NCBI GenBank assembly: GCA_012838035.1
Contig: DUQB01000005.1
Coordinates: 28,510 to 92,509, forward strand
From: Bacillota bacterium
GTDB taxonomy: Bacteria; Bacillota; Limnochordia; DTU080
DNA: 64,000 nucleotides
Direction: 5' to 3'
Shown here: piece by piece, positions 48,526 through 51,321 of the stretch
How the letters are laid out: each line of letters opens with the position of its first letter
How positions within the stretch are numbered: position 1 is the first letter of the stretch
Notes under the pieces: model-generated
Databases searched by the model: none
What the model was told of the DNA's origin: nothing
Seen by the model: only the letters and a program-made list of their open reading frames with translations
Program-made: the position numbers and the translations under genes

Positions 48526-49785
48526 ATGTTGCGTAAACCCGGGTCAAAACGGAGGACGCGGCGAGCCGATCAGGCCGGGGCGTCCTTTTTAACGCTGGAT
48601 ATCGGTACTGAATGGGCGAAAGCCGTGATCACCAATCAGGCGCAACGGCAAGTACTCAGCGCGGGATACGCCCGACAGCATTTAGGAGATATGGATGGGG
48701 GCGCTATTGCGAATATCGCCGGCGTGACCGAAACCGTTTCCAGAGCGCTGCGCGAGGCGGTCTCATTAGCCGATGCGGAGCCGCAACTCTGTTTAGCCGG
48801 CATTGCGGGCGAGTTGGTACAAGGCGTAGTCAGTTCAATCACGAGTGAACGCAAACGTCCCGACGTACCTTTGACGCTGCGCGAGATTTCTAGGTTAGCC
48901 TGGCATACCGTAGCCCAAGCGCATATGGCAGCAAAGGAAAAAACGGCACTGCAAAGTGGTATACGCAACCCGCACGTGGAGCTGGTCGATACGGCCTTAA
49001 TTGAAATCCGCATTGACGGCTACCGAGTGAGCAACCCGGTGGGTTTTCGCGGTAAGCACCTGGCCATATCGGTGTTTCATACCTTCTCGCCGCTGGTGCA
49101 TGTACGGGCTATAGAAAGCGTTGTGCGAAGCACAGGCTGTCAACTGCTGGGTATAGTGGCCGAACCTTTTGCCGTCGCTACCTGCGCTCTTCCGGCCGAA
49201 GCATATGAATTGGGCGCGGTTGTGGTAGATATCGGGGGCGGAAGTACGGATGTGGCCGTGCTGGAGAAGGGCGGCGTAGTGGGTACGAAAATGGTAGCCA
49301 TGGGGGGACGAGCTTTCACGCGTAGCCTGGCTGACGCTTTCTCACTGAGCCTTGATATCGCCGAAGAGCTTAAGATCGATTATGCAACGGGTAGTTTGGC
49401 AGCGGAACAGGCAGAGCAGGTGCGATCCGTCATCGATGCGGACATGAAAGTGTTTGTGGAGGCCTTGCGCCTTGCATTCTCCGATTTAAAAGGTGCCGGT
49501 ACGTTACCTACACATGTGTATTTTTGTGGAGGGGGCAGCGGTTTGCCTGGTATACTGGACTTACTGGACCATCCGCAGTGGCTTAAGCAGGGGTTTTTTA
49601 CCCGTACGCCGACAGTCGTTCGCTTGAGTCCGGGCGATGTGAAGAGTATTCAGGATCCCCAAGGCTTCCTACAAGGTTTTCGAGACGTAACGCCTAAAGC
49701 GCTGGCAACCCAAGGCGCACGTGTCCTGGCGGATCGATTTCAGGAAGGGACGCCATCCTTTACTGGTATCCGCAAAGGTGGTTAA
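48526..49785 (+). CDS. FtsA/actin-like (ASKHA superfamily) ATPase paralog
   Basis: Phosphate-1 LTLDIGTEWAKAVI, phosphate-2 VVVDIGGGSTDVAVL, adenosine motif VYFCGGGSGLPGI, and an FtsA-type inserted subdomain. No recognisable C-terminal amphipathic membrane helix. 419 aa. Confidence 0.65.
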   Translation: MLRKPGSKRRTRRADQAGASFLTLDIGTEWAKAVITNQAQRQVLSAGYARQHLGDMDGGAIANIAGVTETVSRALREAVSLADAEPQLCLAGIAGELVQGVVSSITSERKRPDVPLTLREISRLAWHTVAQAHMAAKEKTALQSGIRNPHVELVDTALIEIRIDGYRVSNPVGFRGKHLAISVFHTFSPLVHVRAIESVVRSTGCQLLGIVAEPFAVATCALPAEAYELGAVVVDIGGGSTDVAVLEKGGVVGTKMVAMGGRAFTRSLADAFSLSLDIAEELKIDYATGSLAAEQAEQVRSVIDADMKVFVEALRLAFSDLKGAGTLPTHVYFCGGGSGLPGILDLLDHPQWLKQGFFTRTPTVVRLSPGDVKSIQDPQGFLQGFRDVTPKALATQGARVLADRFQEGTPSFTGIRKGG

Positions 49786-49788
49786 TCC

Positions 49789-51321
49789 ATGCGAACAGAG
49801 CAACCGGAGTTTTTTTATGTTGATCCCACCACTGAGGTCGTAGGTGTTTTGCGCGGCATTCAGAACGCCAAAGCCCGCAAAGTAGCGGTGGTGCTGCCGG
49901 AAGATCCTCGCTTATTCCGCAACGATATCAACCTGCGTTTGATTGCTTCTTATGCAGAAAAGAGCAACAAAGACGTCGTTTTGATTACCATCGACCCGGC
50001 CGTGGCCAAAGTAGCCTACGCCCACGGTTTGCATGTTTATGATTCTCCCGCGTCGGCTTGGAAACCGGAAGGTAGGGTTTTTGACTTAGACATTACGCAA
50101 CCATTAAACCAGGTAGAGGTTAAAGGGCGACGCCGCGATTATAAAACGGGTAAAATGATGCGCACGCGCCGGCACTATCAACGGGCGCTGGTGATGATCA
50201 CCGCTTTGTTCGCCGTCGCGGCCGTGTGGTATGTCGCTACTCCGCAGGTCACCGTGGTGGTTACGCCTGCAGTCAAATACATTTCGCAGGAGATGCACCT
50301 GCCTTTGATTGCCCCGGGCGTAGCCGGGGAAGGCGTACGGTTAAACATGCTGGAGATTCCTGTTGAAGTCAGCGCCGATCAGGCAGCTACGGGCAGAAGA
50401 ACCGAGGGAGTGACCGCTGCCGCTGGGTCCGTACTGTTTATTAACGATACTGAAAAGGCAATTGCGGTACCTGCCGGAACGCTGGTTTCTACCGACGGCG
50501 GTCAAATCTTTCTGACTCTAGCCGGCATCACCGTACCGCCGGTGCAGGCGGAGTACTTTATGAACGTTGTGGTGGGGATGAAGGCCGGCCAAGCAGAGGT
50601 GGCGGTCAGGGCGCAAAAAACCGGTAGTGGCGGAAATGTGGCTTCCGGACGCATTCGCTTATTGCCGCAAGGGCCAAACGAGCTTAAAGTGGTGAATCCG
50701 GAAGCGACGTACGGAGGCGCTGATCGCTCAGTCACCTACGTAACCGCCACGGACATCGCTAATGCGCATCGGGCGGCAAGCGCCGTTCTCATACAGAAAG
50801 CCGTGGAAATCATCTCTGCGCGACTAGGCGACGATACCATAGCCTACATGGCTCAGTTGACGGTGCAAGAAGGGGAGATGCGCTCTTCTGCAAACGTCGA
50901 TCAGGAAGCAGCGCAGGTCACCGTGTGGCTGACAGGAAAAGCCCGCGTTCCGTATATCCTAAAACAAGACGTGCTTGATCAAGCGGCTAAAGCGATCAAA
51001 GCCGGTGTGGCGGTTCCGGCCGGATACGAGCAATTTGGTCCTATCCAGGCGCAATACGAAGGCGATTCACAGGCACAGGCCGATTTGCCGCTAAGCGTGA
51101 GCATTCAAGCAGTCATCCCTGTGGTCAAATCCTTGGATGACGAAACCGTTAAAAGGCAAGTGGCCGGTATGGAACCCGGTTTGGCGGCTGAAGCGTTGAG
51201 CGATATCGGCGTTGTGGAGATAAAGGGCAAGGTGCGCAAGTATCTGCCGCGCTGGACGCCTTGGCTGCGAGTGGTACTGGCCAAACCGGCCGAACCTGGT
51301 GATGCTGAAAGGATTTACTAA
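49789..51321 (+). CDS. Bitopic membrane protein: ~135-aa cytoplasmic N-domain, one TM helix, ~350-aa extracytoplasmic domain. Function unknown; probable partner of the upstream actin-like ATPase
   Basis: TM helix ALVMITALFAVAAVWYVA preceded by an RRHYQR positive patch. Starts 4 nt after the stop of the preceding gene. Confidence 0.5.
   Translation: MRTEQPEFFYVDPTTEVVGVLRGIQNAKARKVAVVLPEDPRLFRNDINLRLIASYAEKSNKDVVLITIDPAVAKVAYAHGLHVYDSPASAWKPEGRVFDLDITQPLNQVEVKGRRRDYKTGKMMRTRRHYQRALVMITALFAVAAVWYVATPQVTVVVTPAVKYISQEMHLPLIAPGVAGEGVRLNMLEIPVEVSADQAATGRRTEGVTAAAGSVLFINDTEKAIAVPAGTLVSTDGGQIFLTLAGITVPPVQAEYFMNVVVGMKAGQAEVAVRAQKTGSGGNVASGRIRLLPQGPNELKVVNPEATYGGADRSVTYVTATDIANAHRAASAVLIQKAVEIISARLGDDTIAYMAQLTVQEGEMRSSANVDQEAAQVTVWLTGKARVPYILKQDVLDQAAKAIKAGVAVPAGYEQFGPIQAQYEGDSQAQADLPLSVSIQAVIPVVKSLDDETVKRQVAGMEPGLAAEALSDIGVVEIKGKVRKYLPRWTPWLRVVLAKPAEPGDAERIY

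Follow-up and report, generated by a model that had tools for sequence, protein, structure and literature searches.

The window analysed in this study, a stretch of 64,000 nucleotides (nt) from contig DUQB01000005.1 of the Bacillota assembly GCA_012838035.1, contains two adjacent genes, here termed A and B, which encode a paralogue of the actin-like division protein FtsA and a membrane protein with a single transmembrane (TM) helix. The pair is the local representative of an old two-gene module, which is conserved in many lineages and has no characterised function and which belongs to a chromosomal block of the order alaS-[ireB]-A-B-ruvX-[DUF1292]-mltG, where the bracketed genes are found in the Bacillota versions only. 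In comparison to Bacillus-type genomes, the pair appears as two extra co-directional genes between ireB and ruvX, as had been noted in an original prediction made from the sequence alone, and this description agrees with the open reading frames (ORFs) and with the Pfam matches of the flanking genes. The block is composed as follows, with coordinates here and below referring to the window and gene calls taken from a six-frame ORF list:

45333..47957, + strand: alaS, alanine-tRNA ligase, the upstream anchor of the block; 874-residue product with Pfam matches tRNA-synt_2c/tRNA_SAD/DHHA1 (public annotation of the contig)
48077..48355, + strand: ireB, UPF0297/ReoM-type regulatory phosphoprotein (Pfam IreB, 2.2e-34)
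48526..49785, + strand: gene A, FtsA-paralogue actin-fold ATPase of 419 residues (Pfam FtsA, 1.3e-15)
49789..51321, + strand: gene B, bitopic membrane protein of 510 residues with a predicted STAS-like head, a TM helix and a baseplate-J-like ectodomain
51347..51829, + strand: ruvX, YqgF-type nuclease, the downstream anchor (Pfam RuvX, 1e-41)
51981..52346, + strand: DUF1292 gene (Pfam DUF1292, 5e-19)
52481..53803, + strand: mltG, YceG-type endolytic transglycosylase (Pfam YceG, 1.6e-89)

Only 3 nt separate the TAA stop of gene A from the ATG of gene B, whose stop is in turn followed after 25 nt by the start of ruvX. The ribosome-binding site of gene A (AGGGAG) is located 7 nt upstream of its ATG and the one of gene B (GGTGG) resides inside the 3' end of gene A. 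Base composition and GC content are even over the pair and its flanks. A scan for promoters and terminators revealed no excess of sites over shuffled sequence, and neither A nor B is matched by the defence-system models of PADLOC.

The features assigned to gene A, with the conservation of motifs judged on 17 diverse homologues of 36-78% identity, are the following:

48526..48576, + strand: residues 1-17, disordered polybasic N-terminal tail (predicted local distance difference test score, pLDDT, <50)
48595..48621, + strand: residues 24-32, LDIGTEWAK, phosphate-1 motif (L24, D25, G27, T28 and K32 invariant)
48808..49095, + strand: residues ~95-190, inserted strand-helix-strand-strand domain of the SHS2/'1C' type, from predicted secondary structure
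49228..49251, + strand: residues 235-242, DIGGGSTD, phosphate-2 motif (D235, G237-G239 and D242 invariant)
49528..49551, + strand: residues 335-342, GGGSGLPG, adenosine-binding motif (G335-G337 and L340 invariant)

The fold of A was predicted with AlphaFold2 from 17 homologues, resulting in a model with a pLDDT of 85.6 and a predicted TM-score (pTM) of 0.83, in which disorder is confined to residues 1-17 and 407-419 and where the SHS2/1C segment consists of strands at 99-108, 151-163 and 178-189 and of a helix at 118-144. In a Foldseek search, this model retrieves FtsA first (5e-30, TM-score 0.77-0.79 over ~410 columns at 15-21% identity) and PilM second (about 1e-21, TM-score 0.55-0.70), followed by EutJ and MreB. 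Equivalent relationships are found on the level of sequence, where FtsA chains are the top hits among solved structures (1.5e-12) and where Pfam detects a weaker match to MreB besides the one to FtsA. The SHS2/1C domain is the means by which FtsA and PilM bind their bitopic partners. The FtsA-type fold in combination with the invariant nucleotide-binding motifs makes it very likely that A binds ATP, and by analogy to its fold family it may also hydrolyse the nucleotide and polymerise.

Despite this relationship, A is a distinct paralogue and not canonical FtsA. Its score of 110 bits against the NCBIfam FtsA equivalog TIGR01174 is below the cutoff of 175.85, as is the case for PRK09472 (53 bits vs 409) and for the pilM model TIGR01175 (30.7 bits vs 133). 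The Pfam model PilM_2 is exceeded with 32.3 bits vs a cutoff of 27 by a partial match (166-294 of 340) that is overlapped by the stronger match to FtsA. With a profile of the A family, members score between 350 and 600 bits and canonical FtsA proteins between 114 and 141 with an empty gap between, and in a neighbour-joining (NJ) tree the family is monophyletic and apart from 10 canonical FtsA proteins. Sequence identity amounts to 42.5% within the A family vs 22.8% between the family and canonical FtsA. Moreover, ftsZ is adjacent to A neither in the window nor in >30 related loci, in which A is instead flanked by alaS/ireB and B. A tblastn search of phage genomes with A returned only FtsA-like matches of ~23% identity in unannotated records.

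Members of the A family differ at their termini. Proteins from the Candidate Phyla Radiation (CPR) and Chloroflexota carry a C-terminal amphipathic helix with a hydrophobic moment of 0.77-1.02, resembling the membrane anchor of FtsA, which is absent in the Bacillota subgroup, whose C-terminus is shorter and which includes the protein of the window. The latter instead has a basic N-terminal tail with a net charge of +6 over its first 22 residues, which might bind membranes, and the attachment of this protein to the membrane may depend on B.

Gene B encodes a protein of modular architecture, which is described by the following features:

49789..50058, + strand: residues 1-90, cytoplasmic compact alpha/beta domain with predicted STAS (SpoIIAA-like) fold
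50074..50160, + strand: residues 96-124, disordered Lys/Arg-rich juxtamembrane linker (pLDDT <50 for 103-125)
50179..50241, + strand: residues ~131-151, single TM helix (top hydropathy 19-mer 133-151)
50242..51318, + strand: residues 152-510, extracytoplasmic module homologous to the baseplate wedge protein J/gp6/gp47
50413..50724, + strand: residues 209-312, beta-barrel core (Pfam Baseplate_J, 8.4e-8, 32.2 bits vs a gathering cutoff of 21.1)

In an AlphaFold2 model calculated from a 63-sequence alignment (pLDDT 91.7), the membrane-spanning helix extends from residues 125 to 150 and is followed by a multi-domain, mostly beta module at 154-500. The TM helix is the sole strongly hydrophobic segment of the protein and has a counterpart at the same place in all 63 family members. 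Since it is preceded by nine Lys and Arg residues and followed by one, the N-terminus and head are located in the cytoplasm and ~350 residues on the outside. The relationship of the outside part to wedge proteins is evident in the Baseplate_J family (PF04865), which matches 56 of the 63 members, and in PHROG 6, 'baseplate wedge subunit', which matches B at 3e-14, and in the model the ectodomain is predicted to adopt the fold of wedge proteins as residues 1-90 are predicted to adopt the STAS fold. Pfam contains no STAS match to the head at E<=0.1, B does not match POTRA/FtsQ, sequence searches of NCBIfam and the Protein Data Bank (PDB) with B gave no match, and a tblastn search of 50,697 phage records found nothing at E<=1e-3. 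Conservation in the head equals that in the wedge-like barrel and it is lower in the variable TM helix and linker, latter of which is the least conserved part. Two candidate features of the head were abandoned: a phosphorylatable STAS site, for which there is no conserved Ser or Thr and where an Asp (Asp69, 77%) instead follows strand 3, and a 'VNLxLL' stretch considered as equivalent of the 'INLLP' motif of PilN, which is placed inside a helix of the folded domain.

The picture emerging from both genes agrees in large parts with the original prediction, which had recognised the DIGT, DIGGGSTD and GGGSGLPG motifs of A, whose core residues are invariant in the homologues, which had described A as FtsA-type but not the canonical ftsA, as is now evident from its score below the TIGR01174 cutoff, the score gap, its separate clade and the absence of an adjacent ftsZ, and which had assigned to B a cytoplasmic head, one TM helix and an outside domain of ~350 residues, all found in model, hydropathy and charge distribution. 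The comparison that it had drawn to actin-like ATPases acting with a bitopic partner is sensible. In contrast, the outside domain had been regarded as lacking any match that could be named, where it in fact scores above the Baseplate_J gathering cutoff and matches PHROG 6 and where the head turns out to be STAS-like.

Both protein families are widespread. The size of the B family was determined by an exhaustive profile search, which found 12,440 clusters of 50% identity at E<=1e-3 and 3,619 at E<=1e-30, compared to 5 proteins in a word-indexed search with the single sequence and 7 with the 63-sequence alignment. Most of the best 150 matches are aligned end to end, including head, TM helix and ectodomain. 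For A, a word-indexed search found 196 proteins, with the best 120 being, with one exception, about 420-435 residues long and the best-ranked carrying names from Firmicutes, Halanaerobiales and Chloroflexota sources. Scanning the A alignment over 185,579 species-representative genomes yielded 80 loci, which were mapped with profiles of A, B and the window neighbours. Carriers of the A family comprise many Candidatus Saccharibacteria, further Howlettbacteria, Peribacteria, Dojkabacteria, Limnocylindrales and other Chloroflexota, Dormibacterota, Natroniella (Halanaerobiales) and other Bacillota, and the saccharibacterial proteins are 33-39% identical to A of the window.

The association of both genes is tight. 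Among 35 A-family loci with a downstream flank, B is found directly downstream of A on the same strand in 33, and in the remaining two, from Nanosyncoccus, it is located at a distance of 3-5 kb. None of the 35 loci contains A without B. The estimated gap between both genes is within +/-30 nt in 25 of 32 non-redundant loci. The surroundings are equally maintained, with alaS upstream and ruvX-mltG downstream of the pair in most related loci. A Firmicutes metagenome-assembled genome (MAG) shows the order alaS-ireB-A-B-(AKR)-ruvX-DUF1292-mltG, where AKR denotes an aldo-keto reductase, a Chloroflexota genome the order iscS-mnmA-...-alaS-A-B-ruvX-mltG, and a Halanaerobiales MAG the same arrangement of A-B with respect to alaS and ruvX, and ireB is absent from the loci of Chloroflexota and CPR. 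Subclades of the NJ tree of A match CPR, Chloroflexota, Dormibacterota and Bacillota. The fixed position and the tree congruent with phyla are better explained by vertical inheritance of an old block and loss in Bacillus-type genomes than by insertion, and the pair is thus probably ancestral. The terms 'inserted' and 'lineage-specific', which the original prediction had used for the pair, do not hold up, since the position between alaS and ruvX is occupied by the pair also in CPR, Chloroflexota, Dormibacterota and several lineages of Bacillota.

Two of the retrieved loci deserve separate mention. In L012 (CAYRWQ010000006.1), a MAG labelled 'uncultured Bdellovibrionales', A and B cluster with CPR and alaS is found downstream and not upstream of the pair, and the taxonomic label may be the result of a binning error. 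In L003 (L003:11261-11866; GCA_900198705.1), a second public assembly with an identical A, B breaks off after about 200 codons and is followed by unrelated genes on the opposite strand (GH123 and others), which probably reflects a misassembly or chimeric join and which explains the partial protein P0001 of 355 residues.

Variations of the block concern genes next to the pair and the presence of A itself. In Halanaerobiales, a third gene, X, is located between ireB and A (L006:5872-7941, L008:7758-9914). It encodes a polytopic membrane protein of 690-770 residues with an N-terminal outside domain of ~380 residues, for which there is no Pfam match and which is absent from the window. The copies of X in L006, L008 and L087 (L087:4677-6980) are mutually homologous with E-values from 1e-52 to 1e-95. 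Latter locus, from a Firmicutes MAG, has the order X-B-(AKR)-ruvX-DUF1292-mltG-PBP, with PBP denoting a penicillin-binding protein, and is devoid of A. Similarly, a metagenomic contig of 64% GC (L088:7001-8848) carries a divergent full-length B alone between alaS and ruvX (P0275, 615 residues, 99 bits) with a long Pro/Arg-rich linker, and its neighbours LytR_cpsA_psr/LytR_C and DUF3054 suggest that it originates from Actinomycetota. Since B is found without A but A was never seen without B, B is the constant element of the module. In two Firmicutes MAGs (L004:10732-11670, L087:8686-9603), B and ruvX are separated by the gene for an aldo-keto reductase with ferredoxin-type Fe-S motifs, and the junction between both genes is thus not inviolable.

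Among the recurring neighbours are several with a relation to the cell envelope. Besides mltG and, in Bacillota, ireB, these include the PBP following mltG in L087, a LytR_cpsA_psr gene on the upstream side in both L005 and L088, as well as an SLT lytic transglycosylase directly upstream of alaS in the CPR-like contig L089, which also encodes mreB-mreC (15599-17245) at a distance of ~6 kb downstream of alaS-A-B-ruvX-mltG. In Southlakia, a LysM protein adjoins mltG (PMC10633639). Together, these neighbours suggest an involvement of the pair in the envelope.

The only members of both families with experimental data are encoded in Southlakia epibionticum ML1, whose block SEML1_0657-0653 (alaS-'PilM'-'baseplate J/gp47'-RuvX-MltG) was covered by transposon insertion sequencing (Tn-seq) (Wang et al., 2023, Cell; PMC10633639, Tables S1-S2), with the genes being assigned to the A and B families by gene order, length, annotation names and domain layout and not by alignment. 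At the time points T0/T1/T2, the 'PilM'-like A homologue SEML1_0656 (427 residues) is classified as NE/NE/GD (non-essential, NE; growth defect, GD) with normalised reads of 2427, 660 and 221, and the B homologue SEML1_0655, a 'baseplate J/gp47 family protein' of 556 residues, as NE/ES/ES (essential, ES) with 373, 34 and 24 reads (PMC10633639). This pattern, which is shared by RuvX (SEML1_0654, NE/ES/ES), fits the class II essential genes of the authors, which are essential only after T0, and the outer genes of the block are ES/ES/ES in case of alaS (SEML1_0657) and NE/NE/NE in case of MltG (SEML1_0653) (PMC10633639). The 'PilM'-like and the baseplate-J-like protein are both flagged as core and as Patescibacteria-enriched families, and the structure-based annotation of SEML1_0655 lists a SpoIIaa-like domain, a beta-barrel, a G3P-like domain and 'gp6 C-terminal domain III' (PMC10633639), which agrees with our model of B from the window. 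The same genome also encodes a canonical FtsA, adjacent to FtsZ (SEML1_0174/0175), as well as the PilM of a pilus (SEML1_0104) (PMC10633639). In light of these coexisting proteins, and of mreB-mreC in L089, A is an additional actin-like protein and not a substitute for FtsA, PilM or MreB. The main text of the study does not mention FtsA, baseplate or PilM, and the pair is found only in its supplementary tables, where no function is proposed (PMC10633639). Full-text searches of the literature found no paper discussing the pair, with these tables as sole data.

Collectively, we assign a probability of about one half to the interpretation that A and B constitute a transmembrane scaffold in envelope growth or division. 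In the mechanism that we infer for such a scaffold, A would bind ATP at the cytoplasmic side of the membrane, would probably oligomerise into polymers as FtsA, PilM and MreB do, and would dock on the cytoplasmic STAS-like head of B, whose wedge-like ectodomain might organise or contact machinery of the cell envelope. Phage relatives of this ectodomain form rings that are assembled by dimerisation. The coupling of an actin-like protein to a bitopic partner would correspond to the one of MreB-RodZ, FtsA-FtsN and PilM-PilN, and the pair would probably serve the growth of the cell wall or division, in parallel to the canonical FtsA/FtsZ and MreB systems.

Several observations weigh against a joint scaffold with envelope function. 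Neither alaS nor ruvX is an envelope gene, and the conserved gene order may thus mirror an old operon structure instead of a common function. In a mirror-tree comparison of 18 loci, A and B show the highest correlation of all pairs (r 0.83, partial 0.44), but pairs including alaS reach similar values. As lineages with B but without A exist, the function of B would not strictly depend on A, which in the window ends with ...FQEGTPSFTGIRKGG, a sequence of low hydrophobic moment, and lacks the C-terminal amphipathic helix of its CPR and Chloroflexota relatives. The conserved positions of B are mainly Gly, Pro, Asn and Thr with no catalytic-looking residues among them, which suggests a structural protein rather than an enzyme. 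Further reservations concern the data from Southlakia, where the two genes were assigned by criteria other than alignment, where the classification of B as essential could in part reflect a polar effect on ruvX, which is likewise classified as ES, and where mltG is dispensable and B is not, so that B would not act solely through MltG.

Among the alternatives, it is conceivable, though rather unlikely, that B is itself the working envelope component with a signalling or regulated STAS-like head and that A is either an ATP-dependent regulator or chaperone of B resembling Hsp70 and EutJ or merely co-transcribed. Partner switching and regulation are typical functions of STAS domains, whose presence would fit such a role, as would the two loci where B occurs without A, the larger harm caused by disruption of B than of A in Tn-seq, and the weaker matches of A to EutJ and Hsp70. 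However, A has a full FtsA/PilM-type fold with its 1C domain and not the layout of EutJ or Hsp70, its degree of conservation is comparable to that of many housekeeping proteins (~42% mean identity across phyla) and it is in none of the 35 loci found away from B, and the STAS phosphosite of B contains no conserved Ser or Thr, its place being taken by Asp69.

We consider it improbable that the pair forms an inner-membrane platform of the PilM-PilN or GspL type, serving an apparatus for type IV pili, competence or secretion whose genes are located elsewhere. Such an assignment draws on PilM as second-best fold match of A, on the name 'pilus assembly protein PilM' given to some members by NCBI, and on the combination of an actin-like with a bitopic protein, which it would fit. 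It is at odds with the low score against TIGR01175, with genes for pilin, secretin, PilO, PilB and PilC, and also pilN, being found in neither the window nor the related loci, and with the pilus locus of Southlakia, which has a bona fide PilM of its own beside PilN-like genes. Moreover, B is unrelated to PilN, PilO and GspL and its cytoplasmic element is a folded domain and not an N-terminal peptide.

Two further proposals are both very unlikely. An ordinary division locus, with A as canonical FtsA and B as DivIB/FtsQ-type or other divisome partner, would account for FtsA as top sequence and fold match of A, but not for its score below the TIGR01174 cutoff, its separate clade with ~23% identity to canonical FtsA, the absence of an adjacent ftsZ in the window and in >30 related loci, the canonical FtsA-FtsZ encoded elsewhere in Southlakia besides the pair, and the relationship of B to baseplate J and STAS instead of POTRA/FtsQ. 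The pair has thus not turned out to be the standard ftsA locus of the organism with B as DivIB or SpoIIIA component, the outcome that the original prediction had named as speaking against it. The role in sporulation that it had also considered, with the pair as specific scaffold of spore-forming Firmicutes, would agree with the presence of yqfD in the window organism, which thus probably sporulates, and with a sigma factor gene in the same region. It does not fit the distribution, since most carriers are CPR, Chloroflexota and Dormibacterota, none of which are known to form endospores, nor the importance of both genes in ordinary growth of Southlakia. Finally, that B would be what remains of a prophage, of a tailocin or of a contractile injection system and have no cellular function can be dismissed with near certainty, since the region is core chromosome of uniform base composition with no other tail or baseplate genes nearby, since tblastn of B found no match at E<=1e-3 in the phage records, since its position is kept across phyla and its conservation extends over the full length, including the TM helix and the cytoplasmic domain that phage wedge proteins lack, and since its disruption carries a fitness cost in Southlakia.

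The rest of the window is a Bacillus-like core chromosome with yqfD, phoH, era, queA, tgt, recJ, relA, hisS, aspS, rarA, iscS, mnmA and later aroC. A search of the whole window (1-64000) with Rfam at gathering scores identified no RNA family, which includes T-box leaders in front of alaS, hisS or aspS. On the - strand, an ORF of 250 residues at 51368-52120 runs opposite to ruvX and the DUF1292 gene. Since Pfam matches both of these sense genes strongly, the ORF has almost certainly arisen by chance in the GC-rich sequence. Within the housekeeping stretch, two large genes at 19231-24017 are located between the queA-side genes and tgt, the first encoding 830 residues with leucine-rich repeats as sole Pfam match and the second 757 residues with weak matches to dienelactone hydrolase and peptidase S9, which together with a sugar-binding protein at 17890-19209 look like a local addition.

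The described module is kept even in the tiny genomes of CPR and its disruption is costly in the only Tn-seq data set of this group. Knowledge of its role could show how the envelope is built or divided in CPR, Chloroflexota and some Firmicutes, and would have a bearing on the origin of baseplate wedge proteins. B reuses a fold that is otherwise known from the baseplates of phages and injection systems. In practical terms, the automatic labels 'FtsA', 'PilM' and 'baseplate J/gp47 (phage)' attached to the A and B genes are misleading. A more far-reaching and speculative proposal, which we hold to be doubtful, would regard the pair as a third actin-based envelope machine of Terrabacteria beside the FtsA divisome and the MreB elongasome, older than the split of CPR, Chloroflexota, Dormibacterota and Bacillota, in which inner FtsA-like filaments would be coupled via STAS-like domain and TM helix to an outer ring or lattice of a cellular homologue of the baseplate wedge, that would share a common origin with the wedge of contractile tails.

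In its comparison with known systems, A resembles canonical FtsA (TIGR01174, PDB 7q6f/7q6d/1e4g) in its actin fold with SHS2/1C in place of 1B and in its phosphate-1, phosphate-2 and adenosine motifs, but it differs in its score below the family cutoff, in its separate clade, in its location beside B and not ftsZ and, in the copy of the window, in the missing C-terminal amphipathic helix. With respect to MreB, A is distinguished by its FtsA-type architecture and by the coexistence of MreB/MreC with the pair in L089. As in PilM-PilN and FtsA-FtsN, a protein of the FtsA/PilM type is encoded with, or would act on, a bitopic protein with cytoplasmic N-terminus, and as in pilM-pilN, both genes are adjacent and co-directional. 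In contrast, B exceeds PilN and FtsN several-fold in size, it carries a folded STAS-like domain as conserved cytoplasmic part where these have a short peptide, it has a baseplate-J-like module outside in place of a ferredoxin-like or SPOR domain, and pilus genes are not nearby.

The closest architectural analogy for B, with its head, basic disordered linker, single TM helix and ectodomain, is found in MreB-RodZ. In RodZ, a folded cytoplasmic domain of ~90 residues, which binds the actin homologue, is connected through a linker that is basic and disordered to a single TM helix and an extracytoplasmic domain, and the protein is linked to cell-wall growth. Yet the head of RodZ is a helix-turn-helix domain whereas the one of B is STAS-like, and there is no relation in sequence or fold. 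Compared to baseplate J/gp6/gp47/TssF-type proteins (PF04865, PHROG 6), B contains a membrane anchor and a fused cytoplasmic domain, and unlike the wedge genes of contractile tails it is located in housekeeping surroundings without sheath, tube, spike or other wedge genes nearby. The counterpart of the pair with experimental data, SEML1_0656/0655 of Southlakia, shows the same gene order, similar lengths and the same domain layout of B, but belongs to a different phylum. In bacteria, the coupling of an actin homologue to a bitopic membrane protein serves to organise division, elongation and the assembly of pili. The pairing of A and B follows this theme of an actin-like ATPase plus bitopic partner, with a partner whose architecture is unprecedented.

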